Part shown: positions 10,531 through 38,804 of the stretch, piece by piece
Numbering within the stretch: the first letter of the stretch is position 1
Layout: every line of letters starts with the position of its first letter
Origin: Patescibacteria group bacterium
GTDB taxonomy: Bacteria; Patescibacteriota; Patescibacteriia; XYB2-FULL-38-15
DNA: 64,000 bases
Reading direction: 5' to 3'
NCBI GenBank assembly: GCA_041653675.1
Contig: JBAZEY010000004.1
Location: 1,105-65,104 of the forward strand
Position numbers and translations under genes: made by a program
Notes under the pieces: model-generated
Seen by the model: the letters and a program-made list of their open reading frames with translations, nothing else
What the model was told of the DNA's origin: nothing
Database searches by the model: none

Positions 10531-11680
10531 TTAACGCGTACAACGCCGTCATTGCCGCGGCTAAAATAAAAAGCGCGATCCAACTATCCGGAAAAAAGAA
10601 AAGAGTGACAAGGGCAAGCGCGCTCACAATAAGTTTTCCCAAAACTAGAGCCATCTGAAGAAAAATAACGCAATTCATCACGCTGGTTTTTTTCGCTTCT
10701 TCGTAAGTAATAGACGCGAGCGGAACGCCGACGGTTCTTCTTGAAATTCTGTATAATGAGTCGGTCATAAAAACGCCAACTCCGGAAATTACTAAAACTC
10801 TCATAAGCCAAGTAAAGGCCGTAAAAATAACTCCGATTTTTAAAACTTCGTGTCTTGACTCTTCATCCGTAATTCTTCCAATATATAAGGTTAAAATTGT
10901 TGCCACAAAGACGGAGGCAGAAATTAAAAATCCGATGGAAGCATAGGCCGGAATCATTAAAAAAATAAAAATTGGCCAAAGATAACCGGCCAAATGTTCT
11001 TCGCCAAAACCAAAATAAGAAAAAAGTTTTCGTCGATTCTCGGGCGCGACTAGCCGCTTCATTGAATCCCGATAAGAAAAAGGTACTGGCTCAAATTTTT
11101 CCGGAGTGGTGAGAAGAGGGATATTGGAAACTAGAATCAAAAAGGCAACAATAATAAACAAAACTTTAAATCCGACGGTCGCAATGACGACGCCGCCGAA
11201 AGCCGGTCCCAAAATCATTACGATAGAATCAAGCACCACTAAATTGGAAATCTCCCTGCCGCGCGATCCATCTTTACCGAAACGAGCAAAATCGGCGTGG
11301 TAACCCGGCCAATAAAGCGTTTTTTGGATGGCTAAAGAAATGACCGCGCTTACAATAAAAAAAGGATGGTAGGGAATGGCAAACAACGACAAGTAAAAGA
11401 GAATTAAAAAGGGCGTGGAAAAAAGTATGGCGTGTTCGTAGCCGCGACTACGGGCAAATTTTCCGCCAAGCGGTACTAATAAAAAGTACAGGGCGTAAAC
11501 GGCAATATAAAAAATCAAAATTTTGGATAAAGAAAATCCCAGGGTGTAAAGATAGATAGGCTCAAAAACGCCAACCGCCGAAACGGCAAAATCTAAAATC
11601 GCCGTCGACCAAAAAAGCTCCTTTAATTCCCGCGACATGCCATCCGCGAAATAACGATGATAAAAATTACGTAAAAACAT
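10526..11680 (-). CDS. Polytopic membrane transporter, MFS-like
   Basis: About 12 predicted TM helices across 384 aa with Gly/Pro-rich loops; no specific substrate motif recognised. Confidence 0.6.
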   Translation of the reverse strand: MFLRNFYHRYFADGMSRELKELFWSTAILDFAVSAVGVFEPIYLYTLGFSLSKILIFYIAVYALYFLLVPLGGKFARSRGYEHAILFSTPFLILFYLSLFAIPYHPFFIVSAVISLAIQKTLYWPGYHADFARFGKDGSRGREISNLVVLDSIVMILGPAFGGVVIATVGFKVLFIIVAFLILVSNIPLLTTPEKFEPVPFSYRDSMKRLVAPENRRKLFSYFGFGEEHLAGYLWPIFIFLMIPAYASIGFLISASVFVATILTLYIGRITDEESRHEVLKIGVIFTAFTWLMRVLVISGVGVFMTDSLYRISRRTVGVPLASITYEEAKKTSVMNCVIFLQMALVLGKLIVSALALVTLFFFPDSWIALFILAAAMTALYALI

Positions 11681-22104: not shown

Positions 22105-23094
22105 CTACAAACTCAATTTAAAACTCTTTATCATCATTTCAAAAGTGCTTTTATAATTCAATTCTGTTTTGCCCCCGAGACTATACGTAATGGCATAAAT
22201 TTTATCCCCCGAAGCGAAATAAGCTGTAAGCCCGTCAGGACTCTTTTTTCCGAGAAGGCCACTCTTAGTCATAACATCACTAAGTTCAGATGGACTAGTT
22301 CCGGGTGACTCAGCTAAATACCAATCCAAAAGCGGCAAACGATTCTGATTATCATCAATAACTACTTCTATAAGCTCTCCCGTGGCCGAAGTGAAAAGAA
22401 CTTCTCTCCCCGTTTCATCAAGAGCTCTCGCGATCCAAAGTGATGGATAAAAAACAGAATATTTAAAAGCTTGGCTATTATAAATTTTTACTAAATTTGT
22501 TTCTTCAATTTTCTGCGGAGCGAGGCCTGTCGGGTTATATAAATTTAAAATTTCCAGCGCGTCAGAATAAGAATCACCGTCGGTATCCGCGGTATTTTGA
22601 TCTGTACTAAACAAAGTTTCTTCAATGTCTGTTAACCCATCTCGGTCAGTATCAGCCGACGACGGTAGTTCAGCTGACGGCTCTGGCAATGGCGCGGGAC
22701 AATCGGCAAGGCATGTGATAGTACTCTCCCCTGATTCGCATGTGCCATTTCCACAAACTGGCGCCGGAGGAACATTAACAGGAACATTTACCGGAGTATT
22801 AACTGGCGGTACGTTCGCATTCACGGGCACGTTTGCCACCGTGTTGGTGTTAGCTGACGGCGTGGTGCTAGTCTTTGGTTTGCTGGTCAAACTTTGAGTA
22901 AAAAGATAGGCCGCAACGGCAACTAAAATTATAACAATAACAGCCATCGCAATAATTAATGTTGATTTTGACCCGCCGCTCTTCCCTTCCTTCGGAACTT
23001 TTACTTTCTTAAAATAAAATTGCTCCGGCATGGCCTTAATCTCGACCGGCGGTTCTTCGGCAATATTAATTGGTTTTGGCTCTCCGTTTGGCAT
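22105..23094 (-). CDS. Single-pass membrane protein with Pro/Val/Asn-rich linker, one CGNG Cys module, TSP3-like DxDxDG repeats and a C-terminal globular domain
   Basis: TM segment LIIAMAVIVIILVAVAAYLF; NVPVNANVPPVNTPVNVPVNVPP linker; CGNGTCESGE module; DTDRDGLTDIEE and DTDGDSYSD motifs. Confidence 0.65.
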   Translation of the reverse strand: MPNGEPKPINIAEEPPVEIKAMPEQFYFKKVKVPKEGKSGGSKSTLIIAMAVIVIILVAVAAYLFTQSLTSKPKTSTTPSANTNTVANVPVNANVPPVNTPVNVPVNVPPAPVCGNGTCESGESTITCLADCPAPLPEPSAELPSSADTDRDGLTDIEETLFSTDQNTADTDGDSYSDALEILNLYNPTGLAPQKIEETNLVKIYNSQAFKYSVFYPSLWIARALDETGREVLFTSATGELIEVVIDDNQNRLPLLDWYLAESPGTSPSELSDVMTKSGLLGKKSPDGLTAYFASGDKIYAITYSLGGKTELNYKSTFEMMIKSFKLSL

Positions 23095-23356: not shown

Positions 23357-24007
23357 TTATGGCTGCTCCAATAATCTTCCCGGCCCTTTCGGATTATATC
23401 CGGCTGTCACTTCCGCTCCATCCAAATATCCGTCACCATCTGTATCGGGATTTAAAGGATTAGTGAAATAAAGATTGACCTCGTCGCCATCTGTAAGCAC
23501 GTCGCCATCTGTATCGGGGTTTGTCGTATCAGTCCCGAGAGCTATTTCTTCTGTATTAGTTAAACCGTCACCATCTAAATCAACTTCTCCTGGGGCGGGA
23601 ATAACCGGCGCAGTTTCCAGAACTTCCGGTGGAACCTCTGCCGGCGTTTCATTAATATTGGATGGAATTTCAGCTGGAATATTTACTAGCGGCAAATTGG
23701 TATTTTGATTAGAAACGGTCGGAGTTTGTGTTCCAGTTTCTTCGGGCGCACTAGAAAATTGTCTCCAAACAAAATATCCGCCGCCGCCAAGAATTACAAC
23801 TAAAATCACGGCCGCTAAAACCAAAAACATTTTCTTTTTCCCCGGACCCCCAGCTTCCTCGCCGACTTCTTCCGGAGTTGCACCAACAGAAGCGGCTCCC
23901 CCGGGCATGCCGGGCACGGTCGGCGAAAGCGCGCCGGCCGGTCTTAATGGTTCTTGTTTCGTCGGCTCCACGCCGGCAAACATGTCTTCTGGTTCTTTGT
24001 CAAACAT
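23357..24007 (-). CDS. Single-pass membrane protein with TSP3/dockerin-like DxDxDG Ca-binding repeats
   Basis: TM segment FLVLAAVILVVILGGGGYFVW; motifs VDLDGDGLTNTEE, NPDTDGDVLTDGDE and NPDTDGDGYLDGAE. Confidence 0.7.
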   Translation of the reverse strand: MFDKEPEDMFAGVEPTKQEPLRPAGALSPTVPGMPGGAASVGATPEEVGEEAGGPGKKKMFLVLAAVILVVILGGGGYFVWRQFSSAPEETGTQTPTVSNQNTNLPLVNIPAEIPSNINETPAEVPPEVLETAPVIPAPGEVDLDGDGLTNTEEIALGTDTTNPDTDGDVLTDGDEVNLYFTNPLNPDTDGDGYLDGAEVTAGYNPKGPGRLLEQP

Positions 24008-24062: not shown

Positions 24063-27000
24063 CTATCTCACGGTAAACTCACCGCTTCGCTCTTGACCCA
24101 CAGTAGTCATATCACTGCCTCTAAATAACTCTCCTTCACTGGCAGAAAGACTCCAGACAAGAGCAGATCCAGTTCCAGTGCTAAGATTGTATCTCCCCGC
24201 GCCAGTTGTGCCATTGTAAACAATCCGGAAATTGTGCAAACCTCTTGATAAAGTACTGATCACTAGATCTCTTCTGCAATCCGGTGTAAGTCCTCCGCCG
24301 GGAGCAGCACATATACTGGCATTAGTTATACCAACCTTATGGCCATCAATATAAACTTCAAAAACATCAGCCGCATTATTACTGCTCACATGCAGACTTA
24401 TCGTCGCACAGTCCGTCGCGTCATCCATACAGCCGTCGGTTCCACTATCATCATTCGGATCGCAAGCGTCAATTATTTCATCACTGTCAGTATCTGGGCT
24501 ATATCTTAGCCTGCAGGTTTCGCCAGCTGGACAATCACCAGTAACTCTACAAATCCGAGAAGCAGTAGCGCTACAGGTTCCCGTAGATTCATATTTTCTA
24601 TTATCACAAGCCCGACCCGTGGCGCAAGTAATCGCGCAAGACGAAGGACTGCAACCCGGCGAAGTCGGTGTGGTGAGATCTTGTGGCTTGCCCCAAGGAT
24701 TTGAAGTATCAACACAAATCCAACTCGCGGGATATGCCGGCAGACGGCTATCGCATTGTTCCGCGCCGCTCACTGTCCCATCGCCGCAAGTCGGACCGCT
24801 CGCCGTTCTTAACGTGCATTCACGGCTGCAATAATTACAAGTTGATCCATATGGCGCCGTACAAGGCGTACCGTTTACATCTTCGCCGGAATCGCACGTT
24901 TCTATTCCCGCTCTCGTAAATCCATCACCACAACTAGAATTCTGGCAATCTACACAAGCGTCTGTATCTACATCATTTGCGTCATCGCATTGTTCACCAC
25001 CTTCAACCGTGCCATTGCCGCATTCGCCGGTTACTGTGCAAACACCCCAACCTTCATCTCGCCACTGGCATTGTCTTACATCTCCCGATACCTCGCATTC
25101 CAAGGTTCTAACGCGCGGATATCCCGTCCCGGCTTCCGGAGAACACAATAAACATTCTTCTTCTGGTTCCGCGCAGTCCGAGTTGCTCTCACAAACTACA
25201 TTAAAATCATCTGAAAGAATGGGGCTGGCCGGACTCAAGTGTTCATCAACCGGAACACAAACTCCTCTCCCGGACAATAAATTTCTATCACATTCTTCTC
25301 GACCATCGGTCACGGTATTTCCGCAAAATGGCGCCGACCCGACACAACCCGCCGCGCAAATCGGTCGACAAGTGCTGCCCGGACAATCGCTGTCCACACG
25401 ACACGACGATCTATCATTATCACAAATTTTTCCATAATTTCCATTAAGACCTTCATCGTCGCACCGCTCGCCAAATCCGCTTTGCAAAATTCCATCTCCA
25501 CAATAACCGCCACTCATTCGGCAGACAGTAGAACATTGATATTCATTCGTCGGCAATGTCCCGCCTCCCGGAATTCTTCCTCCGCCCGGACCGCGATCGC
25601 AAGCTTCACCCGTATCAATAATCCCATTTCCGCAAGTAGGAAGACACGACCCCCAATCATTCCATCGACAAGTAGCTAAATTACAAGTTCGGCTTTGCCG
25701 ACCCGTTCCACTGCCGCAAGATTGTTCGCTCGTGCGGCACGTTCCGCCCGTAGCAACGCAATCCAAATCACTGCGGCAAAAACTTGTCGGATCCGAAGAA
25801 CATGTATTTAATAAACTCGGTTCGCATTCTTCGGCTTCGTTTTCCGGCGTCGCCGGATTATCAACATTTAGTATTCCATCACCACAAACTCCACCCACAC
25901 TGAAAGTTGTACCATCGCAAACATTTTCATATTTAATGTAGGCTGGAATAGCGTCTCTAAACCAACTCCAACTCGGAAGAATTATCGCGCCCGATGAATT
26001 AGTAAGCTTGTGTTCCAAATCACCGCCAATATTATAAAATCCCGTAGCTGATTCGTAACGATATTGGTAAATATGAGACAAATCGGGACAGTGGTAAGAT
26101 TCTGCGCTCGTGTTCCAACAAGTGTCAGGATTATAAGGATCTACGCAACCCTGAAATTTATTTACCGGATCTTGTGGTAATCCTCCGCCGAGTTCCTGCC
26201 CAAGCACGGCCCATGAATCCCACTTGCTCGTGGAAATCCCTCGAACATACGAACCGGCTTCCAGTTTTGGCGGATAACCTCGCGTCATCATATATCTTTC
26301 CACCTCGGCTTTGATTTTATCTAAATCAGATAAACGTTTAACATCACGGGCCAATTTATCTTTTGGCGCATCACACAAAGATTGTGTCGGAGTTTGTGGA
26401 CAATCCAAATCAGCCGAACAAGGAATCGCTTGATCATCTTCGTCCGTGACAGTTGCCGCGCCGCGCTTACAAACTTTATTATTTTCCAAATTAATATTAA
26501 AATTCCAATTTTCTACCAATTGATTATAAATATCAATTGTGTCCTGGCTGGCATCTTCATTATATGAAATCAAATAAACGTTTGTATAAATGTCTGGCCC
26601 GGAACTAGAGCCGCCAATAAGCGCCGGCTGGTTTGCCGCGGAAACATAAATTGTCCGACCATCTTCCACGGCTTGATATTGATCAACCGTTTTCCCACTC
26701 GGAGACGCCGGTCTGAATCCTTGGGCCGTGTACCAATCGGATAAAGCAAGGTGGTTTTCATTTGTATAAATTCTAATACCGATCGCGTCGGGCGAAGATT
26801 GGCAAGATCCGCCTTCCGGGGCGCACGGATTTTCCGTGTTACAAGGCAATTTGGAAAGGGTACAATAACTCCCCTGAACAAATAAGAAATATTCTCTGAG
26901 TAAAAAGTCAGATGATCCCGGCGGCTCCGGCGGATTATTTACAATCGGCGGATCGCTAACCGTCGGTAAATCATCGCTAAAACCAAGCTCTCCTCTGTCC

Positions 27001-30000
27001 TGGCAATAATATGTTTCAAAATTATATGTTTCATCAGCTAACCCTTCGCCCGTCACGCCAAATCTATCTGGCCATGGATTTTCACAAAGAAAAACTATCG
27101 CGTCGGCCCCGCTACCCAACACTCGTCCCACGGTTCGGGGAGATAAAATTGTATCGGCAGTAATTCTCGCTGAAACTAAAATTCTTGCTTCTCCGTTTTT
27201 ATTTTCCGCTTTCGCCTCTTGGCTAGCATTAAGTTCGCAAACTCCGCCGTCTCTACAATCGCTCGCGCTGTGACAAATTGCAGTCGATTCATTGGAACAA
27301 GCGCCTTCGGGATTTAAGCTAACTACTGTTGGATCGTTAGACACCCAATCTTCCCATTGCCAAGCGTACACCCCGGGCAAGGAAGAAATCGCTCTCCCCC
27401 GCGTGTCTCTCGGTATGGCGGAAAAATTGTGTGTTTCACCACTCTGCGTAAAAACATGAACCTCCGGCGTAAATGTCACTTGGCTCAAAGCACAAATGTC
27501 ACCGCCCGTCTTAAACGACCATTCATAAATTTCCCTGCCGCTGTAGGCCGCGGGGTATTCACCGGATAAGCTACCTCCACCCAACGCCACGCCTTTTGAA
27601 TTTCTAATCCCCTCAATCTCGGGCGTTGTAGAATTGTCACCTAAAATCAAAACTCTATAGTCATTATCACTATCAAAAGCTTTAGTTGGACTAAAGCTTA
27701 CTTCCGTCACCAAATTTCCACCTTTATTTACAACAACAGACGACGCTGTTCCCGGCCAGACGCACCACGGACTTCCCGGCGCGGCGCTCGCCGGCTCGCC
27801 GAGCAATGATTGCCCAAATTTATTGACGAAATCTTTTACTTGGCTAAAAATCTTTAAATCATTCTCAATTTTATTAATCGGCTTAACCAATATTCTCGCA
27901 ATCGGCGGAGGCAGCCACTTCTTTATTTTTTCAAAAAATTGCCAACCGGATTTTCCTTCGCCGGTCCATAGAGCTAATTGTACCGTTCCGTCAGGACACG
28001 TCCCGCCGTAATTGCCGACGACTAAAATATTACCCGTGACGCTCGCTGTTTCCATTACATCGTCAAATGTCACAGAAATTCTGGCATTGCGGCAAACTTC
28101 AACCGCTCCTGAATCACAACCAACCGCGCCATCCCGAGTGGGATCGCAGTTTGTCACTTTTGGTTTAAAGTAGCAACATGTGTTGCGGCCAACTCCCAAT
28201 TCGCAATCAGCGTCAGTTGTGCAAGATTGTGAAGTTGTTCCTGAACATATATTAGAAGTTGAAATACACGACAAACGAATTGCACTGCAATCCTGACCGC
28301 CGCAGCGCAAAGTCAAATCGCCGCTGTCGGATTTTCCCTCTGTCGCGGCTGAAATTTCCGTGGTGCTGGAATTTACTCCGGCCGCCACGTCCTCCGTGGC
28401 AAGATCAATTGCTTCGGCCGTTTGGTATGGATCAATTCTCGCGTCCGTGACTGTTCCTTCATTTAAGCAAGTATCACTGCAACCCGGCCCTGGAGCGTTC
28501 CCATCGTCGCAATCTTCACCGCGTTCTTTCGCCCGATTTCCACAAACTCCCCCGCCAGCCACAGATCCTTCGTGTTGGCAAATATTATTACATCCATCCC
28601 CCGAACGAGTATTTCCGTCATCACAATCTTCGCCAATTTGAATTATGCCATTACCACAAGTTGAATCATAACGCGCGTTTGATCCTTCGTTCAAACAAGT
28701 CGCATTACAACCATCAAGCGTTGCCGTATTGCCATCGTCACAGTCTTCGCCAAATTCTTTTACGCCATTTCCGCAAGATGGATAATTATTATCATTGGTA
28801 ATTGTTGCCACTCCTGGATCAGCCGATGCCCAGCCCCAATTATAATCCATAGCACCAAGCTGCTGGCCGTTCGGGCTACAGAGATCTGGCTCGCTGAAAG
28901 GCGTGGAAGAATAATTTTGCGTCGCGCCGATAAAATTCAAAATCGCGTTTTGCGGATCAACTGCCACGCGATCCACGGCGCAAGGACTGGCATCATCTTT
29001 AGTTTTGAAAGTCCAAGAGTAAGCAGAAAAAGCCGCCGGGTCGCCGGCCGGATAATTTAAATCAGTCAAATGGACGCCGCTCGTTGAAGTAACACGATCA
29101 GAAATAACGGCGCGATAATAAGTATTCGGCGTAAAGAGCACTAAAGGCTCAATAACCATTTTTTTTGCGACCGAATCGTAAGAAGTTCCTGCCAGAGAAA
29201 CTTCCTCCAGAGCTCTCGTTCCTTCATTTAAACAAGTTGTCGCGTTGCAGTTGGCCGGGAATGGAGATCCGTCACAATCTTCACCTTCTTCAACCAGGCC
29301 ATTACCGCAAACCGCGGCGGCGCCATCGCTGCCGATATTTAAACATGTGGTGCGATTACAACGCTCCGGAAATGGCACACCGTCGCAATCTTCACCGGTT
29401 TCGCGGCGATCATTGCCACAGTACGAACCATAAAGCGCGTTTGACCCTTCATTCAAACAAGTCGCGCTGCAACCGTCGCCTGCCGTCGCATTGCCGTCAT
29501 CACAATCTTCACCGGGCTCAATCACGCCATTGCCGCATTTCCAAATATAAAGATTAACATTTGCCGCGCTCTCCACGCTCGCCTGATTCATGTTTGTATT
29601 AAATTCCGCGCCGACTTCCGCGTTAGCGCAAGCATCACTGCAGTTCGGCCACGCATTTTCTACTCTTGGGTCTGTAAAATTAATTGTCAAATTTCCTGAG
29701 CCAAATTTACTTTCACTTGGAATTCCGCCGGTAATTCGAACCGGCAAACCAACTTCTGTTTCCGCCCGAGCCGTGGCAACTTCACTCGGAGTAATACTAC
29801 CAGCCACAGTGGCTTTTGAAATATCTGACGAAGTCCAGCGCCAAGGACTATAAGCGCTGCAATCAATTGTTATGCAAACATCGCCGGCCGCATAACACAA
29901 ACTATCATAATTCTGTGTCGCCCCAATACTTACTAAAGTCCGTTCATACGGAGAAACCCCAACTAAACCGATATCACACGTCTCGTCGCTGTCGCGGGTT

Positions 30001-32975
30001 TTAAATTGCCAAATATAATCGCCACCTTCCACTCCATCTCGGTCGCCATCCAAGAAAAATCCCCCATCCGGACAACCGGCGCCTCCAAGACAGCTTTCTA
30101 TTCCTGTGCCGGCAACCGCGTCACTTTTCAAAGTCACCTGATACCAAGTATTTTGCGTCCACTTTCTTCCTACCGGCAACAACTTAAGTTCAAAACCATC
30201 TTGATGGTCATCAATGTCACTAAATCTAACACTGCTGCCAGTAACCTCTGCTTTCGTCGTACAGGTTTGATCAGAACAGCTTTCAACTAAAATATTTGAT
30301 GTATTTACTGATGCTGGATTTATTTTTGTCGTGAAGCGCGCCGTTATTGTGGCGTTAACACAAACTCTCTCTCCTCCATCTCTGCCAGACCATGGTGAAG
30401 GTGAAGCCGGCCCCGGCGGTGGGGGATTGCTGCAGCTTTCTACCACTTGCGGATAAATCGGAAGTTGGCCAGTGGAAAATTGCCAGAAATAATACCCTTT
30501 ACCCGCGGCCGCAGCGCACGCTACGGCGCAACTGCCATCACGGCAACATTGCTGGCCGGAAGAACAAGTGGCGCCCGTGCGACAATCTTGAACTATAAAA
30601 TTAACACTATTTCCCGTTGCTCCCCCAGAAGTAACATTAACCGGACCGGTTTGGGTTCCGGTCGGAACAGGCGTAGAAATTTGTATGCCGTCAGTTGGAG
30701 TAACAGTCGCAGGAGTTGACCGATAAAAATTAACTAAAGCCGACGCGCCAAAGCGCTCGCCATCAATTCTCACCGGCAAATCAATCGGTCCATTGTCCGG
30801 AGTAATTTTACAAATTCCCGGACCGGCCGTTCCAGAATCAACCGTAAAATCCGATGTTGTTAAATCGCTTGTATCATCAGACTGGCCACCCGCGGTTCCA
30901 GCAGTCGTAATTTTTATAACATCTGTAACCGCGCCGGTCGGAACTTTTACAATAATTTGATCGTTTTTCCACCAATCAGCTCCGCAAGCCGCAGGAAAAT
31001 CTGTCGCGGCCAAAAGATCCGCGCCGCCGATATCTTTAAAAAATACTTGGCCGGTTTCATTGAGAAAATTGGCGCCAAAAATTGTCACGTACTCGCCTAT
31101 TGGCCCATGCGTCGGAGAAAAACTTAAAATTCTTGGCGCTTCGGCCGTGGCGACAACTTGGAAATTAATTGGATTGCTGTTTTCACCGCCAACCACGACT
31201 TGTACTGGAACCGTAGCCGGAGCGATTAAAGGTACAACCGCGCCAATGCTCGTGGGAGTCCAGAGACTAACTCGTTCTGCTCGTGTTCCGCCAAAAATTA
31301 TTTCACTTGTTCCTTGTGTCGCGCCAAATTGAGTGCCAGCAACAACTACTTCAATTCTCGGCTCGCCATTATCCGGCGTAATTGAACAAATTCCCGGCCG
31401 GCTTGTATCATTTATATCAAAATTTGGCAAAACCGGACCGCGCTCATCATCAGTTTGATCGGTATAGTCAGCTGCGGTCGCGCCGGTTGGCGGAGGCACC
31501 ACAACTTTTACCGGACCATCAGTCGCGCCAGCAGGAACAACCGCGATAATCTGATTATTTTGCCAAGTAGCTGAAGCAGGACAAGCCGGCGTTCCAGATA
31601 AAACATTATTAAAATAAACTTGGCCGGAAATATCTCCAAATCCTTGGCCAAAAATTGTCACGTAATTTCCTACTGCTCCATCGTTTGGCGAAACGGCAGT
31701 AATTTCTGGTAGAGTTCGGCAAACTCCGCCAATACATGATCCTCCGCGGCAATCTGTTCCGCTCGTGCAAGATCCTCCGTCGCAAGTTCCGCAATCCGCG
31801 CCACCACAATCAATATCTGTTTCATCCGCGTCCTGTCGCCCGTTAAAACAATGCGCCGCCCGGACAATTACGTCCACGCCGCCAGAAGTAGTATTATTGG
31901 AATCAATATCAAAAGCTTTCGTCGTCAAAGTATGTCTTGATCCAGCCGTAACGCCAGTTGTATCCCAATCAAAAATTGATGAATAGTCACGCGGCGTTGG
32001 ACCAGAGGGTGCATCAGTTCCAAGCGTTCCGCCATTTGAAAAATATTCCAAATAAGAAATTCCCGCGTCGTCTGTCGCGTGCGCCTCAATCGAAACTATC
32101 GCGTCAGCCGAAACAGAAGCGCCCGGATTGGGAGAAGTGATTCTTACTTCCGGCCCGGTCACGTCAACTAAATTTCCTGTTGTAAAATTGGCCGTACAAT
32201 TTGGCGCGAGTCCGCCACAAACTAAAAATTTTCCATCAGTACTTCGGAGACCGGTTGCCGCTTCCACCGTAAATTCCGTGTCCGCGTCAAAACATTTTCT
32301 GTCAACGTTCGGTGCCGGACAATTGGCACTCGGAACGAATTCCACGACCGTTCCGGAAGCGCTCGCTGTTCCGTCCACTAAACTTCCGTCAGCCGTCACG
32401 GTTAAATTTCCCGCTAAAGTTGTCGCGTCAACATTTTTGTTAAAAACAACGCGCACGACAACATTTCGAATTGGTATAGCGCCATTCGGCTGAATTCCGC
32501 GGACAACAAATGAATCAGACGGCAAACCACCGCCACCGCCTCCTCCACCACCGCCACCGCCTCCTCCACCACCGCCACCGCCTCCTCCACCACCGGTAAT
32601 GCCCGTCGCTTCCATTAATCTATTCATAACATACTGGGTGATGCCAAAAGAGAAAATAATAATAATCAAACCTATCAAAGCATTAACCAGAATTTTTTTG
32701 GCCTGCGATATCCGCTCCTCATTGCCGCCAGCCGTCATCCAAACAAAACCGCCGTAAATTACAATGGCTACGGCGACAATCCCCAAAAATCCGAGCGCTA
32801 CACGAATAATTTGCGCCGCGACCACTCGCGGATCTTCCGTCGGTAGAGCAATTTCATTTCCCACTTCATTCACCCCAAAATCCTGGGCGAAAATAGTTGT
32901 AGCAAACAAAAACGCACCCGTAATCAAAAACAGGGAAAAAAGAAATTTTAAAATTTTCTTCTCGTGTGGTTTCAT
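24063..32975 (-). CDS. Giant (2970 aa) Cys-rich cell-surface protein with N-terminal VirB2/TrbC-pilin-like double-TM domain and poly-Gly linker
   Basis: After the signal peptide (cleavage ...TIFAQ-D), LGFLGIVAVAIVIYGGFVWMTAGGNEE ... LIGLIIIIFSFGITQYVMNRL ... TGGGG parallels Ti VirB2 and RP4 TrbC. A run of about 24 Gly follows. Several CGNGxxExGEDCDDGNxxxGDGC repeats; beta-rich extracellular modules. Confidence 0.85.
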   Translation of the reverse strand: MKPHEKKILKFLFSLFLITGAFLFATTIFAQDFGVNEVGNEIALPTEDPRVVAAQIIRVALGFLGIVAVAIVIYGGFVWMTAGGNEERISQAKKILVNALIGLIIIIFSFGITQYVMNRLMEATGITGGGGGGGGGGGGGGGGGGGGGGGLPSDSFVVRGIQPNGAIPIRNVVVRVVFNKNVDATTLAGNLTVTADGSLVDGTASASGTVVEFVPSANCPAPNVDRKCFDADTEFTVEAATGLRSTDGKFLVCGGLAPNCTANFTTGNLVDVTGPEVRITSPNPGASVSADAIVSIEAHATDDAGISYLEYFSNGGTLGTDAPSGPTPRDYSSIFDWDTTGVTAGSRHTLTTKAFDIDSNNTTSGGVDVIVRAAHCFNGRQDADETDIDCGGADCGTCDGGSCTSGTDCRGGSCIGGVCRTLPEITAVSPNDGAVGNYVTIFGQGFGDISGQVYFNNVLSGTPACPASATWQNNQIIAVVPAGATDGPVKVVVPPPTGATAADYTDQTDDERGPVLPNFDINDTSRPGICSITPDNGEPRIEVVVAGTQFGATQGTSEIIFGGTRAERVSLWTPTSIGAVVPLIAPATVPVQVVVGGENSNPINFQVVATAEAPRILSFSPTHGPIGEYVTIFGANFLNETGQVFFKDIGGADLLAATDFPAACGADWWKNDQIIVKVPTGAVTDVIKITTAGTAGGQSDDTSDLTTSDFTVDSGTAGPGICKITPDNGPIDLPVRIDGERFGASALVNFYRSTPATVTPTDGIQISTPVPTGTQTGPVNVTSGGATGNSVNFIVQDCRTGATCSSGQQCCRDGSCAVACAAAAGKGYYFWQFSTGQLPIYPQVVESCSNPPPPGPASPSPWSGRDGGERVCVNATITARFTTKINPASVNTSNILVESCSDQTCTTKAEVTGSSVRFSDIDDHQDGFELKLLPVGRKWTQNTWYQVTLKSDAVAGTGIESCLGGAGCPDGGFFLDGDRDGVEGGDYIWQFKTRDSDETCDIGLVGVSPYERTLVSIGATQNYDSLCYAAGDVCITIDCSAYSPWRWTSSDISKATVAGSITPSEVATARAETEVGLPVRITGGIPSESKFGSGNLTINFTDPRVENAWPNCSDACANAEVGAEFNTNMNQASVESAANVNLYIWKCGNGVIEPGEDCDDGNATAGDGCSATCLNEGSNALYGSYCGNDRRETGEDCDGVPFPERCNRTTCLNIGSDGAAAVCGNGLVEEGEDCDGSPFPANCNATTCLNEGTRALEEVSLAGTSYDSVAKKMVIEPLVLFTPNTYYRAVISDRVTSTSGVHLTDLNYPAGDPAAFSAYSWTFKTKDDASPCAVDRVAVDPQNAILNFIGATQNYSSTPFSEPDLCSPNGQQLGAMDYNWGWASADPGVATITNDNNYPSCGNGVKEFGEDCDDGNTATLDGCNATCLNEGSNARYDSTCGNGIIQIGEDCDDGNTRSGDGCNNICQHEGSVAGGGVCGNRAKERGEDCDDGNAPGPGCSDTCLNEGTVTDARIDPYQTAEAIDLATEDVAAGVNSSTTEISAATEGKSDSGDLTLRCGGQDCSAIRLSCISTSNICSGTTSQSCTTDADCELGVGRNTCCYFKPKVTNCDPTRDGAVGCDSGAVEVCRNARISVTFDDVMETASVTGNILVVGNYGGTCPDGTVQLALWTGEGKSGWQFFEKIKKWLPPPIARILVKPINKIENDLKIFSQVKDFVNKFGQSLLGEPASAAPGSPWCVWPGTASSVVVNKGGNLVTEVSFSPTKAFDSDNDYRVLILGDNSTTPEIEGIRNSKGVALGGGSLSGEYPAAYSGREIYEWSFKTGGDICALSQVTFTPEVHVFTQSGETHNFSAIPRDTRGRAISSLPGVYAWQWEDWVSNDPTVVSLNPEGACSNESTAICHSASDCRDGGVCELNASQEAKAENKNGEARILVSARITADTILSPRTVGRVLGSGADAIVFLCENPWPDRFGVTGEGLADETYNFETYYCQDRGELGFSDDLPTVSDPPIVNNPPEPPGSSDFLLREYFLFVQGSYCTLSKLPCNTENPCAPEGGSCQSSPDAIGIRIYTNENHLALSDWYTAQGFRPASPSGKTVDQYQAVEDGRTIYVSAANQPALIGGSSSGPDIYTNVYLISYNEDASQDTIDIYNQLVENWNFNINLENNKVCKRGAATVTDEDDQAIPCSADLDCPQTPTQSLCDAPKDKLARDVKRLSDLDKIKAEVERYMMTRGYPPKLEAGSYVRGISTSKWDSWAVLGQELGGGLPQDPVNKFQGCVDPYNPDTCWNTSAESYHCPDLSHIYQYRYESATGFYNIGGDLEHKLTNSSGAIILPSWSWFRDAIPAYIKYENVCDGTTFSVGGVCGDGILNVDNPATPENEAEECEPSLLNTCSSDPTSFCRSDLDCVATGGTCRTSEQSCGSGTGRQSRTCNLATCRWNDWGSCLPTCGNGIIDTGEACDRGPGGGRIPGGGTLPTNEYQCSTVCRMSGGYCGDGILQSGFGERCDDEGLNGNYGKICDNDRSSCRVDSDCPGSTCRPICAAGCVGSAPFCGNTVTDGREECDRNLLSGRGVCVPVDEHLSPASPILSDDFNVVCESNSDCAEPEEECLLCSPEAGTGYPRVRTLECEVSGDVRQCQWRDEGWGVCTVTGECGNGTVEGGEQCDDANDVDTDACVDCQNSSCGDGFTRAGIETCDSGEDVNGTPCTAPYGSTCNYCSRECTLRTASGPTCGDGTVSGAEQCDSRLPAYPASWICVDTSNPWGKPQDLTTPTSPGCSPSSCAITCATGRACDNRKYESTGTCSATASRICRVTGDCPAGETCRLRYSPDTDSDEIIDACDPNDDSGTDGCMDDATDCATISLHVSSNNAADVFEVYIDGHKVGITNASICAAPGGGLTPDCRRDLVISTLSRGLHNFRIVYNGTTGAGRYNLSTGTGSALVWSLSASEGELFRGSDMTTVGQERSGEFTVR
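32528..32596. repeat. Perfect 3x tandem 21-nt repeat encoding the poly-Gly linker
   Basis: The unit gccaccgcctcctccaccacc occurs three times on the plus strand, in frame (7 Gly per unit). Confidence 0.7.
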
Positions 32976-33034
32976 AATCCGGCCACACTAATATTTATTG
33001 CGAACTTAAAACGTTTTTGTCTTTTACTCTAATT

Positions 33035-34075
33035 CTATTTTAACGTGAATGTCTGAATAATCTGTCTCGCTTCATTTAAAATATCTTCATATTTCTGATC
33101 CTCCAAACCGGGCCTGCCAGCATAATCACCACCGCTTGTGTAATAAAAGGCCCACAGGTTGCTGTCTTTAATAAAAGTCTGCGGATAATCCACAACATAT
33201 GGATCATTTTTATCTTCAATTCTTACAATATTTATTTGCACGTAACGTCCATTGTCATTTTCTGAGGTTAGACGGAATGCTCTTATCTTAGAGTACCCAG
33301 GATCTGCCACCTGCTCTGCTTTTATTTTCCCCCAAGAAGCTGGAAATGTCAGAGAAAAACCATATGCACTATTTGTATAGGTCGTAGGGGCCGCAGGTGT
33401 TGAAAAATACAAAGCTACATCTGTCAATGTATCTTCGCACAAATTTAACGCGGCCACTTTTGCTGTGTAATCCGGTTCTTCCGGTTCCGGCGCGGCGCCA
33501 CCGCCACACCCGCCTTCCCAAAGTAATTTATCAGAATATGCGTGCAACGGACCAAACCCACCGACGTTACAGAAAGCAGTATTGTCATTACTAAAACCAA
33601 CAAATTTTTCGTTGGTCCAATTGTTGTAATTAGGGGTGACGACTAAAGTTAGGCCGTTTAAATTTAAAGTTTTTCGACTGCCGGTATTTGCTTGATCGAT
33701 AAAACTATTAAACTCCTGATTACTGCACTTTACTCCAACCAGCACGCTTGTATTTTCTTTATAAAGAGACCAATTTTCAACCTGGTCTACAATGGGAGCA
33801 ACACATTTTCCTTTATCGCAAACAAAATCCCCCAAACATGGCTCCGCCACGCTGCACTCCGGAGATTCTAACCGCGCTGTTAAATCGTCTATCTGCTGTT
33901 GCAGTGATTGCTTCGCGTTCGTTAAATTTTCCTGTGCAGTTTGCAATTGCATTGCCTGCCAAAAGTAAACTCCACCACCGACAATAAGGGCTGTGAGAAC
34001 CACGGAAATTAAAACCGTAGCAATGGTGGGAAATTTTTTAGGACTTACTGGCTGCGTGATTGGTTGGTTTTCCAT
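33035..34075 (-). CDS. Membrane-anchored hypothetical protein (N-terminal TM, coiled coil, Cys-containing ectodomain)
   Basis: TM segment IATVLISVVLTALIVGGGVYFW; coiled coil QENLTNAKQSLQQQIDDLTARL; CxxxxC pairs follow. Confidence 0.6.
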   Translation of the reverse strand: MENQPITQPVSPKKFPTIATVLISVVLTALIVGGGVYFWQAMQLQTAQENLTNAKQSLQQQIDDLTARLESPECSVAEPCLGDFVCDKGKCVAPIVDQVENWSLYKENTSVLVGVKCSNQEFNSFIDQANTGSRKTLNLNGLTLVVTPNYNNWTNEKFVGFSNDNTAFCNVGGFGPLHAYSDKLLWEGGCGGGAAPEPEEPDYTAKVAALNLCEDTLTDVALYFSTPAAPTTYTNSAYGFSLTFPASWGKIKAEQVADPGYSKIRAFRLTSENDNGRYVQINIVRIEDKNDPYVVDYPQTFIKDSNLWAFYYTSGGDYAGRPGLEDQKYEDILNEARQIIQTFTLK

Positions 34076-34103
34076 AAAGTTTTTAAATTACTAAATTTTA
34101 AAT

Positions 34104-35963
34104 TTATTCTATCGGCCACGTGCAACCCGCGCCGACGGGATCAGTGCAACTTGTTCCAGCAGCTGGCCCAACTGGTTCATAAAAACAATTTTGATAAATA
34201 TCTTTAATTCTATGCGTCGCCCGCGGAAAATATCTTACGAGATTCTCGTCAACCGCCGCGCCATCAGCGCAAGTCGGCGCCGGAGCAGGCGCTTCAGTGC
34301 TCTCAATAAACTCCCCATGATAAATTATTGCTTTATGTTTTACCGGCGTTCCTCCGCGCGGTGTGGGCACGCCAAGGGCGTCTGTCCCCTCCCCTCCCAA
34401 AGTAAACCAAACGGCGCAAGCGTCGCGTTCGTTATCATCTAAAATTATATTTTCTGAAGAAAAACTAGTCACACTCATTGGTTTACTAAATCTAAATTCA
34501 ACCGGCGCGTCGAGCGCTACATCACTTCCACTCGCCGCTGGTAGGAGAGTTTCAATTCTCGGCGGAATTAAATCAATTGTATTATTGGTAGCAAAATCCC
34601 AAGCATAATTATCGGTTGGCGGACCTTCGGCCACGTCATCTCCGTCTCCGTCTAAAGAATTTCCTACCACGTCAGTCGCACCAGTGTAAGGCATTTCTGC
34701 TTCTGGCGGAGTTGTACCTAGACGCGCGGCTTTTACATTCACGGAAATATCAGCATCAGCGGGCAAACAAAAAACATCACCGCCGCAGGAATTTGTCCCA
34801 CATCGAAAATCGGTTGTAAATTCTATAGTTTTATATTGATTGCCAATCGCCCAAGTTCCAGCAACGGGTCCGGGAACCGGCACACCGTCGGCCAAAACTT
34901 CAATTTTATCAAAACCTTCCGCCGTTTTGCCGGCCACGGTTGTCGGATCCATGGCTTCGTCAAAATTTACTTGAACTAAAATATTTCTGGCGTTTGTCGT
35001 TGCGTCTCCCGGAATTACGCTTTCCACTTCTGGCGGCGTAACATCAACAAAAGTGCTCACTTCAAAATCCCAGGCATAACCATCACTAAACGCGCCAGTA
35101 AAGGCGTCTCCTCCGTCGGCCTTTTTCAAACCAGGCTTTAACGCCACCGTATACCAAATATTTTCCGATGGACTCCCTAAAAGTTCCGCCGGATCAAAGG
35201 TGAAATTTTTTAAATCAGTCGTGAAACCAACCCTTGCCTCGCCCGGCTCCAAATAATTGATCACGCCACCCGCACCGGTTTCTCCCTGGAGGGATTGATA
35301 AATTCTAATATTTTCGCTCTTTATCGGTAAAACCGTTGCCGGAGTGACGGCCACGCCTCCGAGTGTATCATCTCCAGGATTGGCCGGATCGTTAATCTCA
35401 TAACCTTCAATAATTGTATCCAGCGCCATTGGCTCTTTGAAAGTGATAATAACTTTTGTATTTCGGGCAATGCCCGTGCCGCCGCGTGGTGGATAATGGC
35501 TTTCAATAATACTATTGCCAAGTGCGCCGGAGTAGCGGCCAACCGCCGGCGGTCCGCCTCCTCCGCCGCCCGCGCCTCCTCCGCCGCCCAAGGCGCTAAT
35601 CAACGTATTTAATACATATTGTGTAATTCCAAACGCCATCAAAATAATCACTAAACCAATCAAGCCATTTGTTAAAATTTTCTTGGCGGTGGCAATTTTT
35701 TCTTCATTCCCGGCTGAAGTCATCCAAACAAAACCGCCGTAGAGCACAATGCCCAGCGCGACAACTCCCAAAAATCCGAGTACAACTCGGATGATTCTCG
35801 CGGCAATCACGCGCGGGTCGCCATCAACCAGAGCAATCTCATTTCCCACTTCGTTTAATCCAAAATTCTGAGCCAAAGCAATTTGGACAAACAAAAGACT
35901 GGCCGTGATAACGGTCAACCCCATTAAAATCTTTAACGCCCTTTTAACTTGCATGTGCGGCAA
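34104..35963 (-). CDS. 619-aa paralog with VirB2/TrbC-pilin-like N-terminal domain, poly-Gly linker and extracellular beta-rich region
   Basis: AQNFGLNEVGNEIALVDGDPRVIAARIIRVVLGFLGVVALGIVLYGGFVWMTSAGNEEKIATAKKILTNGLIGLVIILMAFGITQYVLN is nearly colinear with the N-terminus of the 2970-aa protein; GGGGGAGGGGGGPP linker follows. Confidence 0.8.
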   Translation of the reverse strand: MPHMQVKRALKILMGLTVITASLLFVQIALAQNFGLNEVGNEIALVDGDPRVIAARIIRVVLGFLGVVALGIVLYGGFVWMTSAGNEEKIATAKKILTNGLIGLVIILMAFGITQYVLNTLISALGGGGGAGGGGGGPPAVGRYSGALGNSIIESHYPPRGGTGIARNTKVIITFKEPMALDTIIEGYEINDPANPGDDTLGGVAVTPATVLPIKSENIRIYQSLQGETGAGGVINYLEPGEARVGFTTDLKNFTFDPAELLGSPSENIWYTVALKPGLKKADGGDAFTGAFSDGYAWDFEVSTFVDVTPPEVESVIPGDATTNARNILVQVNFDEAMDPTTVAGKTAEGFDKIEVLADGVPVPGPVAGTWAIGNQYKTIEFTTDFRCGTNSCGGDVFCLPADADISVNVKAARLGTTPPEAEMPYTGATDVVGNSLDGDGDDVAEGPPTDNYAWDFATNNTIDLIPPRIETLLPAASGSDVALDAPVEFRFSKPMSVTSFSSENIILDDNERDACAVWFTLGGEGTDALGVPTPRGGTPVKHKAIIYHGEFIESTEAPAPAPTCADGAAVDENLVRYFPRATHRIKDIYQNCFYEPVGPAAGTSCTDPVGAGCTWPIE

Positions 35964-38153: not shown

Positions 38154-38804
38154 TTACTGGTTATATTCGGGTGTTTCAAAAATTTTTAATTTATCGAATG
38201 GCCATCCTCTAAACCACACCTTGCCAACAATGCTTTCTCTTTTGATTGGGCCAAAGCTTCGCGAATCAAAACTCGCTAAACGATTATCACCCATAATAAA
38301 ATATTCTTCCACGCCAAGAGAAATTGTCCGATCGCCAAAGGTTTTAATCTCTTCTTCCAAATAATTCTCTTTTAGAAGCAAACCTTCTCGATTGTCACCA
38401 TTGAAAACCGTTATTTTCCCGTTTTTTATTTCTAATGTTTCATTGGGCAAACCAATAATTCTTTTTATAAAATATTGGCTCGGATCTCTTGGATATTTAA
38501 AAACCACAATATCTCCCCTCTCTGGCGAATTGAAACGATAACCTATTTCATTAATAATCAAATATTCATGATCAAAAAAATTCGGCTCCATAGACGCGCC
38601 CTTAACATAAAAGGGCTGAATTAAAAAATAACGCACGGGCACAATAATGGCCAGCGAAATTAAAATTACTTTGATAATTTCCAAAGTGTATTCGGTAAAG
38701 CGTTTTATGGCCGCTTCTTTTTTAACTTCACTTTTGGGTTCCGCGGCTGGCTCTACTAGTCCCAACTCATCTTTATTTTTTAATATGGGCATAATATTTT
38801 TCAC
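38154..38804 (-). CDS. lepB: Signal peptidase I
   Basis: GASMEPNF Ser box, N-terminal TM, box E GDNR. Confidence 0.9.
   Translation of the reverse strand: MKNIMPILKNKDELGLVEPAAEPKSEVKKEAAIKRFTEYTLEIIKVILISLAIIVPVRYFLIQPFYVKGASMEPNFFDHEYLIINEIGYRFNSPERGDIVVFKYPRDPSQYFIKRIIGLPNETLEIKNGKITVFNGDNREGLLLKENYLEEEIKTFGDRTISLGVEEYFIMGDNRLASFDSRSFGPIKRESIVGKVWFRGWPFDKLKIFETPEYNQ

Follow-up and report, generated by a model that had tools for sequence, protein, structure and literature searches.

Patescibacteria account for a large share of bacterial diversity and most live attached to other cells, while to our knowledge the means by which the large groups outside the Saccharibacteria hold their hosts have not been established. 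Their T4SS are set apart from every other monoderm system by VirB2-like pilins, which make up the family PF18895 and are essential in the sole genetically tested strain; we know of no adhesin found for these systems and of no experimentally observed pilus built of PF18895 proteins. According to published reports, such pilins are widespread in the phylum, indispensable to Southlakia and strongly expressed in Paceibacterales, and no PrgB-type adhesin was found in the phylum (PMC12102498, PMC10633639, PMC10936435). They are described as small, ~110-160 aa, and often encoded near virB4 (PMC12102498; Wang et al. 2023, PMC10633639), with PF18895 genes adjoining virB4 in 1135 assemblies and lying inside the essential Southlakia T4SS cluster (PMC12102498, PMC10633639). 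In their survey, Quinonero-Coronel et al. (2025) counted any PF18895 match as VirB2 and left fusions unmentioned (PMC12102498), and our literature search found no published description of the fusions reported here.

We analysed a 64,000-nucleotide stretch of the genome of an ultrasmall bacterium of the Patescibacteria (the window) in which two genes encode proteins of 616 and 2970 aa (the latter called the giant) that share with these small pilins the signal peptide, the A/Q cleavage site (slash, predicted cut), the DPR motif, the two helices and the loop motif, but that carry 490 or 2840 extra residues, predicted to be extracellular, and as a pair occupy a constant place among housekeeping genes, with no T4SS genes there. 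With the classical conjugative pilins VirB2 (Ti), TrbC (RP4) and TraA (F) they share predicted Sec export and cleavage before Q and a predicted helical hairpin with both termini outside, as well as a basic loop and a DP...WM...TM2...GGG pattern; they differ in that PF04956 stays sub-threshold, the loop is 8 residues longer, a huge C-terminal ectodomain replaces the short cleaved or cyclised tail, and the organism is a monoderm with no VirB5 or outer-membrane complex known. The concept is that of the Gram-positive modular type IV pilins (Streptococcus sanguinis PilB/PilC), minor subunits that join a polymerisation module to a functional or adhesive domain, but neither the pilin superfamily nor the machinery is related: type IV pilins carry a class III signal peptide and depend on a prepilin peptidase, whereas our proteins lack the class III signal peptide and single N-terminal helix and have a type I signal peptide, A/Q and a two-helix hairpin. 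Like the giant Ig-repeat adhesins (SiiE, Bap/RTX, LPXTG fibrils such as SasG), they are very long, repetitive and beta-rich; unlike them, they would be anchored by an N-terminal pilin hairpin, and the giant is orthologous across the phylum instead of strain-variable and is Cys-rich, as an earlier, preliminary description of this DNA had said (150 Cys by our count). No LPXTG sorting signal, RTX, T1SS signal or SLH was found in either protein by sequence inspection and Pfam/NCBIfam scans, and their C-termini read ...GQERSGEFTVR and ...GAGCTWPIE. Unexplained, beta-rich, adhesin-like proteins of >1500 aa were noted in Parcubacteria by Nelson & Stegen 2015 (PMC4508563).

Organisation and conservation of the locus

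ORF translation of the window placed the 2970-aa, 346-aa and 616-aa genes in that order on the minus strand, at the coordinates given in the preliminary description. The 619-aa reading of the 616-aa gene opens at a TTG (35963); an ATG stands three codons further in, at 35954, and yields a 616-aa product that matches P0121 / MFA5413286.1 exactly, a protein entered at NCBI as 'Ig-like domain-containing protein [Patescibacteria group bacterium]'. The features are as follows.

22105..23094, minus strand: 329-aa protein crossing the membrane once, with TSP3-like acidic repeats; second of the conserved downstream neighbours
23357..24007, minus strand: 216-aa membrane protein with TSP3 (Ca-binding) repeats (PF18884 at 6.1e-15)
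24063..32975, minus strand: gene of the giant putative modular pilin, 2970 aa (ORF, Pfam/NCBIfam)
24066..24728, minus strand: giant, lineage-specific distal C-terminus, aa 2750-2970 (poor orthologue coverage)
24729..32525, minus strand: giant, conserved ectodomain, aa 151-2749 (Pfam, NCBIfam, coverage by 185 orthologues)
32526..32594, minus strand: giant, linker of 23 Gly (coding DNA a 21-nt tandem repeat)
32601..32885, minus strand: giant, VirB2-like pilin hairpin, aa 31-125 (PF18895, AF2, hhalign)
32886..32975, minus strand: giant, predicted Sec signal peptide, aa 1-30, I-F-A/Q (from sequence)
33035..34075, minus strand: 346-aa single-pass membrane protein, lineage-specific insert between both pilin genes
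34104..35954, minus strand: gene of the 616-aa putative modular pilin (ORF reaches the upstream TTG at 35963)
34107..35534, minus strand: 616-aa protein, ectodomain of ~four tandem Ig-like (Big_5) domains (AF2, Foldseek)
35586..35870, minus strand: 616-aa protein, hairpin, aa 29-123 (PF18895 33.1 bits, AF2)

The pair was found in at least 553 species-representative genomes, including Falkowbacteria, Uhrbacteria, Komeilibacteria and Paceibacter-type genomes, almost always side by side and among the same housekeeping genes (lepB-hisS-rpsU-yqeY-[pair]-TSP3-ybeY-dgkA-ftsA). The architecture is thus deeply conserved and no rarity of one genome, and it is already annotated automatically (Pfam, NCBI). 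The two genes adjoin in almost every one of 80 species loci; in four loci a small free pilin gene is intercalated between them, and in 65 a gene for an S26 signal peptidase stands four genes upstream. The 216-aa TSP3 gene, directly downstream of the giant, keeps its place in 21 loci and the 329-aa neighbour in 14. Besides conservation and synteny, the data show that both pilin modules co-vary within genomes: the pilin cores of the 616-aa protein and the giant had an identity of 0.55 when taken from one genome, compared with 0.465 across genomes, and the own genome's giant ranked top of 68 in 24/68 loci. The two genes are best explained as an ancient core-genome module passed down vertically, not as mobile T4SS cargo. 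Among the scanned ORFs of the window none matched VirB4, VirD4 or another T4SS family, in agreement with the preliminary description, and in 80 genomes the 10 kb around the pair likewise held no T4SS gene, virB4 included. The closest free pilins stand in arrays likewise without a nearby VirB4, the proteins beside those arrays include no recognisable assembly machinery, and our pair matches the published array definition only as two pilin-domain genes one gene apart.

The 346-aa gene is outside this conserved module. Its product, earlier called a smaller membrane protein, does have one hydrophobic segment, N-terminal in the translation, and gave nothing above threshold in a Pfam scan; among 86 loci the gene recurs only in the near-identical locus L004, which rules it out as a conserved partner, and paralogy with the downstream 329-aa gene was rejected on comparison. 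A scan for consensus promoters and terminators yielded nothing usable, the terminator count equalling the shuffled expectation. Elsewhere in the window, positions 1..8400 (few ORFs, higher GC) had been considered as an rRNA operon; Rfam found no rRNA there, and what occupies the segment is another giant ORF, which continues past the window's edge.

The shared N-terminal module

The N-termini of the giant and the 616-aa protein have 80 identical residues over ~125 aligned positions (64% identity), bearing out the common N-terminus of ~130 aa that had been reported, and weaker similarity runs on to about residue 335 (38% identity, E 6e-46). Both proteins also have a Sec-type signal peptide, two hydrophobic helices and an ensuing Gly-rich tract, whereas the A-x-A-Q cleavage motif described earlier for both is literal in the 616-aa protein only (A-L-A/Q, ending a 28-aa signal peptide before the hairpin), because the giant's predicted site is I-F-A/Q; the giant's signal peptide and A/Q site line up with those of stand-alone pilins. 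Its hairpin comprises the DPR motif, TM1 LGFLGIVAVAIVIYGGFVWM, the loop TAGGNEERISQAKK and TM2 ILVNALIGLIIIIFSFGITQYVMN, with AF2 helices at 49-81 and 86-123 (pLDDT >90), compared with 47-78 and 84-123 in the 616-aa protein. In the giant the linker that follows is an unbroken run of 23 Gly whose coding DNA repeats a 21-nt unit three times, and a Gly-rich linker is kept at the same position in orthologues.

PF18895 (T4SS_pilin) scored 35.1 bits on the 140-aa N-terminus of the giant and 33.1 bits on that of the 616-aa protein, and 29.0 and 28.4 bits on the full-length proteins, all four above the Pfam gathering cut-off of 26.6 bits, with the match in the giant spanning aa 56-116; the case of a generic signal peptide plus TM helix therefore fails for both. 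A profile of stand-alone pilins matched just these two ORFs within the window, at 160 and 149 bits, far beyond chance. The N-termini align end to end with 43 stand-alone pilins (120-140 aa) at 41-63% identity, 12 invariant and 13 near-invariant columns being common to the fusions and the free pilins, and the free pilins stop ~10 residues past TM2, exactly where the Gly linker of the fusions starts. The family trait of a small stand-alone protein is absent, the proteins being 616 and 2970 aa. These alignments establish both the homology and the fused architecture, and judged by sequence both N-termini belong specifically to a conserved pilin family.

On profile evidence, kinship to classical TrbC/VirB2 appears weaker than kinship to the PF18895 pilins. 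The Pfam check suggested earlier turned out differently for the two families, in that PF18895 passed in both proteins while PF04956 (TrbC/VirB2) was sub-threshold in the giant N-terminus (18.4 bits vs a cut-off of 27.9) and without a match in the 616-aa protein; among aligned family members PF04956 matched 14/45 at E<=0.01 (best E 2.2e-7). An hhalign comparison with 4 plasmid VirB2/TrbC sequences covered 56 columns at 32% identity (E 5.8e-5) and was colinear with Ti VirB2 across the DP motif, TM1, WM and TM2, reproducing the motif-for-motif match to Ti VirB2 claimed before, though at 65.6% probability only. Fold comparison with solved pilins returned generic hairpins alone, and for a domain that is just a helical hairpin such searches have no power to discriminate; the pilin-family profile recovered no pilin among PDB sequences.

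The two ectodomains

The AF2 model of the 616-aa protein (pLDDT 87.4, pTM 0.76) has the hairpin, then a disordered linker, then Ig-like domains, residues 145-600 being all-beta, and Foldseek matched the ectodomain to the LdtMt2 BIg domains at 1e-7 and also to titin, cadherins and CopC. This ectodomain is strongly conserved across the phylum (invariant columns), with conserved Cys motifs CGTNSCGG..FCLP and YQNCF, and of the protein's best 120 homologues most have 540-665 aa and nearly all combine PF18895 with PF13205. Because of this phylum-wide conservation, a structural role would fit it better than that of a host-specific adhesin.

Past its Gly-rich linker the giant continues for ~2800 residues of Ig/TIG/Cys-rich modules, in which Pfam recognised Big_5, Big_7, 3 TIG and DUF4215, and NCBIfam the Cys-rich repeats TIGR02232; the Cys-rich repeats are acidic, and conserved blocks at 1300-1650 and 1800-2330 are without family assignment. 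Residues 1-1200 have 1176 relatives at E<=1e-30, and the best 150 of these are nearly all 1000-4700 aa, most matching from their own N-terminus. The stalk is conserved, in contrast to the variable distal 220 aa, across which no more than 0-22% of 185 orthologues could be aligned (22% at aa 2751-2800, 0-3% beyond 2851) and where the nearest relative scores 59 bits. Pfam on 300-aa slices and NCBIfam gave no enzymatic or known binding domain, just Ig/TIG/Cys-rich repeats, and PDB sequence searches with aa 1801-2400 and 2751-2970 likewise gave none, the latter segment having no PDB sequence match. A pilin-like 'LPQDP' motif near aa 2290 was supported by none of the searches.

Proposed modular pilins and alternative explanations

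We tentatively propose that the pair are modular VirB2-like pilins displaying surface fibres, a reading we regard as the likeliest one, though somewhat short of probable. Each protein would be exported by Sec and cut at A/Q, and its two helices, homologous to the entire body of the small PF18895 pilins, would insert as a hairpin with both ends outside the cell and the short basic loop inside. A flexible Gly-rich linker would tether the extracellular part, presumably retained, which would be a rod of ~four Ig-like domains in the 616-aa protein and, in the giant, a disulphide-rich fibre of ~2800 residues whose stalk is conserved and whose distal end varies. These ectodomains may be presented at the membrane, or may belong to minor (first-assembled, tip) subunits within a VirB2-type filament, and may serve cell-to-cell contact, the adhesin or host-attachment role suggested in the preliminary description being a candidate. 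In the T-pilus, the VirB2 termini are on the filament's outer side and the loop faces the lumen (bioRxiv 10.1101/2022.09.25.509369), so a C-terminal extension would point outwards; because a 2800-residue appendage is impossible on every filament subunit, incorporation could be sub-stoichiometric only. From the retained free-pilin invariants and the within-genome co-variation we infer pilin-type contacts, with small pilins or an assembly platform. Against this reading stand the lack of T4SS genes in the window and within 10 kb in 80 genomes, and nearest free-pilin arrays that are also without a nearby VirB4, as does the phylum-wide conservation of the 616-aa ectodomain.

That lack, along with the core housekeeping locus, would suit a hairpin co-opted purely as a two-helix anchor with no T4SS or pilus link, the proteins being constitutive envelope parts (spacer, S-layer-like coat, wall-spanning fibre), as would the very strong conservation of the 616-aa ectodomain, the generic hairpin fold, and the Big_5 (SbsA-type) Ig domains and TSP3 Ca-binding neighbours, which are typical for envelope proteins. 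For mere anchoring, however, hydrophobicity would suffice, yet the DPR motif, the GGFxWMTAGGNE loop and other free-pilin invariants are kept, the pilin modules co-vary within genomes and small free pilin genes stand between the pair genes in four loci; we consider this explanation somewhat unlikely, but one to be reckoned with. It is also conceivable, though quite improbable in our view, that the 'pilin' name of PF18895 is itself a misleading inference, the VirB2/TrbC likeness a convergent hydrophobic similarity and the fusions ordinary surface proteins with an unusual anchor. The PF04956 score below cut-off, the empty PDB search with the family profile, the generic hairpins from fold searches, the hhalign probability of only 65.6% and the examined pilin arrays that do not adjoin VirB4 all point that way; they are to be set against the 14/45 family members matched by TrbC down to E 2.2e-7, the colinear hhalign alignment across the DP motif, TM1, WM and TM2, and the PF18895 genes that published work places beside virB4 in 1135 assemblies and in the Southlakia T4SS cluster (PMC12102498, PMC10633639).

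Very improbable, finally, is a pro-pilin whose ectodomain is cut off near the Gly linker, like the TrbC/TrhA C-terminal extensions before cyclisation, leaving the hairpin as an export/insertion leader or ordinary pilin and the large part released or non-covalently held. Free pilins naturally end at the fusion point, and the gene four genes upstream encodes an S26 signal peptidase, to which RP4 TraF is homologous, but that gene resembles housekeeping lepB and belongs to a housekeeping cluster. C-terminal processing is established for RP4 TrbC, which loses 27+4 C-terminal residues (TraF), and for R27 TrhA (PMC13434634); known cleaved extensions, however, are tens of residues long, vs 500-2800 here, and the variable Gly-rich linkers have no visible conserved cleavage motif.

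Returning to the modular pilins, a more specific and distinctly unlikely version would make the pair the missing adhesin/tip complex of the T4SS-type pilus in Patescibacteria; both proteins would use their VirB2-like modules to nucleate or cap a small-pilin filament, with an Ig-rod and a Cys-rich fibre of roughly 100 nm standing at its end. More generally, its pilin-like hairpins joined to large ectodomains and its conservation in hundreds of related species make the gene pair a strong candidate for a cell-contact structure, and this conserved core-genome pair of pilin-fused proteins provides two concrete experimental targets. If the pilin modules co-assemble with small pilins, the 'modular pilin' principle would extend from type IV to conjugative-type pili, and if the pair does form the tip complex, these would be the first modular conjugative-type (VirB2) pilins and part of a phylum-wide, vertically inherited host-contact organelle.

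A pilin-type N-terminus shared by two fusion proteins

The locus comprises three genes in one orientation, with a repeat-encoded linker in the largest of them:

24063..32975, minus strand: ORF of 2970 aa, the giant pilin-domain protein ("the giant")
32526..32594, minus strand: 23-Gly linker of the giant, encoded by three copies of a 21-nt unit (GGTGGTGGAGGAGGCGGTGGC) plus 6 nt
33035..34075, minus strand: ORF of 346 aa, the middle gene
34104..35963, minus strand: ORF of 619 aa from a TTG start, or 616 aa from the ATG at 35954

The ATG-started 616-aa product is identical to NCBI MFA5413286.1, titled 'Ig-like domain-containing protein [Patescibacteria group bacterium]' and encoded on an 87.9-kb MAG contig, which places the window in a Patescibacteria (CPR) genome. 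The exact 2970-aa sequence of the giant was absent from a collection of 15 billion proteins that does include its two upstream neighbours on this contig, and its source record may use a different start or annotate a split gene or a pseudogene.

Alignment of the giant with the 616-aa protein revealed 80 identities across the first ~125 positions, with a weaker similarity that reaches as far as the first of the Ig-like domains (335 residues, 38% identity, E 6e-46). In both proteins the shared N-terminus consists of a Sec-type signal peptide (predicted cleavage before the Q of A-L-A-Q in the 616-aa protein and of I-F-A-Q in the giant), an acidic stretch that includes a DPR motif, a pair of hydrophobic helices connected by a short loop (TAGGNEERISQAKK) and a Gly-rich tract. 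The overall architecture is hairpin, linker and ectodomain. AlphaFold modeled the N-terminus of the giant as a helical hairpin (helices 49-81 and 86-123, pLDDT >90). The Gly-rich linker also occurs in orthologues of the giant, where its length and composition vary, and in the giant its length could shift by slippage of the in-frame 21-nt tandem repeat.

Both N-termini scored above the Pfam cut-off of 26.6 bits for PF18895 (T4SS_pilin), a family of VirB2-like Patescibacteria pilins, with 35.1 bits for the giant and 33.1 bits for the 616-aa protein. Residues 1-129 of the giant matched 499 proteins, and the best 120 of these were almost all stand-alone Patescibacteria proteins of 112-223 aa carrying PF18895 (free pilins; 42-64% identity), the exceptions being two closer, truncated fragments (85-88% identity). 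Alignment with 43 free pilins showed 12 invariant columns and homology that begins at the signal peptide and extends through helix 2. The free pilins end ~10 residues past this helix, at the very point where the window proteins pass into the Gly linker. Because the PF18895 threshold was passed, the best matches were almost all free pilins and the alignment ran end to end, the N-terminus is a specific conserved domain and not a generic signal peptide plus transmembrane helix. The pilin assignment made for both proteins in a preliminary description holds.

Evidence tying PF18895 to classical VirB2/TrbC is less strong than that for the PF18895 assignment itself. Against PF04956 the giant reached 18.4 bits (cut-off 27.9), a Pfam scan of the 616-aa protein returned no match to this family, and 14 of 45 aligned family members matched it at E<=0.01 (best E 2.2e-7). 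NCBIfam gave a sub-threshold match to a Mycoplasma ICE 'pilin-like conjugal transfer protein'. Comparison by hhalign of the pilin alignment with VirB2/TrbC from Ti, Ri, Sinorhizobium and Acetobacter plasmids (65.6% probability, E 5.8e-5, 32% identity, 56 columns) paired the DP motif, helix 1, the WM dipeptide and helix 2, the loop being 8 residues longer in the Patescibacteria family. The motif-for-motif match to VirB2 described earlier was thereby reproduced, but with moderate confidence only.

The pilin modules of the two proteins also co-vary. Pilin-core identity among fused and free proteins was 0.48-0.53 within classes and 0.43-0.47 between classes, with fused cores as conserved as free ones. 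Identity between giant and 616-type modules was 0.55 in the same genome and 0.465 in different genomes, and in 24 of 68 loci the 616-type module matched the giant of its own genome best. This higher within-genome identity indicates gene conversion or co-evolution, either of which would imply functional coupling of the two modules.

Distribution and gene order

Relatives of both proteins are conserved on the scale of the phylum. Homologues of the 616-aa protein formed at least 433 clusters at 90% identity, and the best 120 of these were mostly 540-665 aa and nearly all PF18895 plus PF13205, with identity down to 37%. A search among 50%-identity representatives with residues 1-1200 of the giant recovered 1176 relatives at E<=1e-30; of the best 150, nearly all were 1000-4700 aa and the majority aligned from their own N-terminus. 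When one genome per GTDB species was scanned, at least 553 species proved to have a relative, with Falkowbacteria, Uhrbacteria, Komeilibacteria, Paceibacter and Parcubacteria among the names in the record titles.

A ~600-aa gene directly precedes a giant pilin-domain gene in nearly all of the 80 best loci, within the shared housekeeping order lytR(-), lepB, hisS, rpsU, yqeY, 616-type gene, giant, TSP3-protein, 329-aa-protein, ybeY, dgkA, ftsA. Complete giants in these loci measure 1668-3606 aa and the remainder are cut by contig ends, with the giant absent in two loci. The architecture, for which the preliminary description knew of no counterpart, is thus not unique. The 346-aa middle gene, otherwise found in only one near-identical relative among 86 loci, is a lineage-specific insert. 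The Patescibacteria-type locus lepB-hisS-rpsU-yqeY-pilin pair also occurs in many species-representative records under the title 'uncultured Gammaproteobacteria bacterium' and in one under 'Candidatus Kapaibacterium' (loci L007, L011, L015, L018 and many others), and these titles look like mislabels.

In four of the 80 best loci the ~600-aa and giant genes are separated by a small free pilin gene (123-165 aa), its core being 51-54% identical to the giant's module in L059, L061 and L076, where the giant could be scored:

L046, 11926..12742: intercalated small pilin gene
L059, 11734..12123: intercalated small pilin gene
L061, 8753..9250: intercalated small pilin gene
L076, 7071..7442: intercalated small pilin gene

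ORF scans of the window bore out the reported absence of T4SS genes, and none were present in the flanks of the 80 best loci. Genes for the closest free pilins are arranged in tandem, 6-9 to an array, and these arrays too have no VirB4 nearby. Two such arrays are independent of one another, each following genes for a GT2 glycosyltransferase and a ~530-aa protein that had no Pfam match and is a candidate for a conserved array partner:

L087, 7513..9868: free-pilin array
L089, 7590..9834: free-pilin array

Ectodomains and other window features

The giant carries Big_5, Big_7, three TIG and Cys-rich acidic repeat (DUF4215/TIGR02232) modules (Pfam, NCBIfam), along with 150 cysteines and long blocks without family assignment; no catalytic domain was found by Pfam on 300-aa slices or by PDB sequence searches with aa 1801-2400 and 2751-2970. 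Across 185 orthologues, residues 1-1150, 1300-1650 and 1800-2330 are conserved, the Cys-rich repeats (2330-2750) show about 60% conservation, and the last ~220 residues are lineage-specific, with orthologue coverage dropping from 22% to zero and a nearest relative at 59 bits. In this pattern a conserved stalk ends in a variable distal part.

Other features of the window were as follows:

1..8409, minus strand: second giant ORF, at least 2803 aa, running off the left window end, with a Sec-like signal peptide (MSLIQKNHKVRRWTVSTVLVFFILTQVLSGVFFYAHPAEAQ)
8421..9182: gene for a 253-aa TSP3-repeat protein, directly upstream of the second giant ORF
10140..10583, minus strand: '23S rRNA intervening-sequence protein' gene (PF05635, 74 bits)
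22105..23094, minus strand: single-pass membrane protein, 329 aa, TSP3 acidic repeats, kept downstream of the giant in 14 related loci
23357..24007, minus strand: single-pass membrane protein, TSP3 (Ca-binding) acidic repeats, kept downstream of the giant in 21 related loci
38154..38804, minus strand: gene for signal peptidase I (S26), which in 65 related loci is the fourth gene upstream of the pilin pair

The second giant ORF had no Pfam match at E<=0.01 and none to the pilin profile. The two TSP3-repeat membrane proteins may share a surface module with the pilin pair. TraF, the pilin maturase of RP4, is an S26 homologue; the position of the S26 gene here is probably housekeeping synteny and is notable beside the A-Q processing site. 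Rfam detected no rRNA anywhere in the window, despite the PF05635 gene.

Possible function and relation to known systems

The PF18895 family and its tie to Patescibacteria T4SS are already published (PMC12102498), and that survey scores every PF18895 match, of any size, as 'VirB2' and leaves fusions unmentioned. A T4SS nomenclature review likewise treats small pilins only (PMC12857230), and large beta-rich Parcubacteria proteins were called adhesin-like in 2015 with no anchor identified (PMC4508563). Full-text searches (PF18895/T4SS_pilin, and Patescibacteria with VirB2, pilin, giant and Ig-like) turned up no account of giant proteins fused to a pilin; the combination of PF18895 with an Ig-like domain is already visible in automatic annotation.

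We propose that the fusions would be exported by Sec and lose their signal peptide, leaving the hairpin in the membrane with both ends outside, which would make the C-terminal ectodomain extracellular. In the T-pilus, VirB2 is U-shaped, with its termini on the filament outside and its loop in the lumen (bioRxiv 10.1101/2022.09.25.509369). Since every pilin-specific residue is retained in the fused module, continued contact with small pilins or with the platform that assembles them is probable, and steric limits would confine proteins with a 500-2800-residue appendage to minor subunits (e.g. a first-assembled tip layer) or membrane-resident molecules. The Ig rod and disulphide-rich fibre with its variable end suggest cell-to-cell contact. 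VirB2-like pilins are essential within the Southlakia T4SS cluster (PMC10633639; PMC12857230) and are among the top-expressed genes of unknown function in methanogen-parasitising Paceibacterales (PMC10936435), and the survey detected no PrgB-type adhesin in the phylum (PMC12102498). Taken as a whole, the model is plausible but tentative.

The housekeeping locus and the strong conservation of the 616-aa ectodomain speak for an envelope scaffold in which the pilin module acts as an anchor only, a reading we hold to be somewhat unlikely. Cleavage of the ectodomain from a pro-pilin has a precedent in the C-terminal processing of TrbC and TrhA (PMC13434634) and seems improbable here, and it is likewise improbable that PF18895 is not truly pilin-related.

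In concept the fusions come closest to the modular type IV pilins known from Gram-positive bacteria. The window proteins differ in having a type I signal peptide and a two-helix hairpin and therefore fall outside that family; they are modular versions of VirB2-like pilins.
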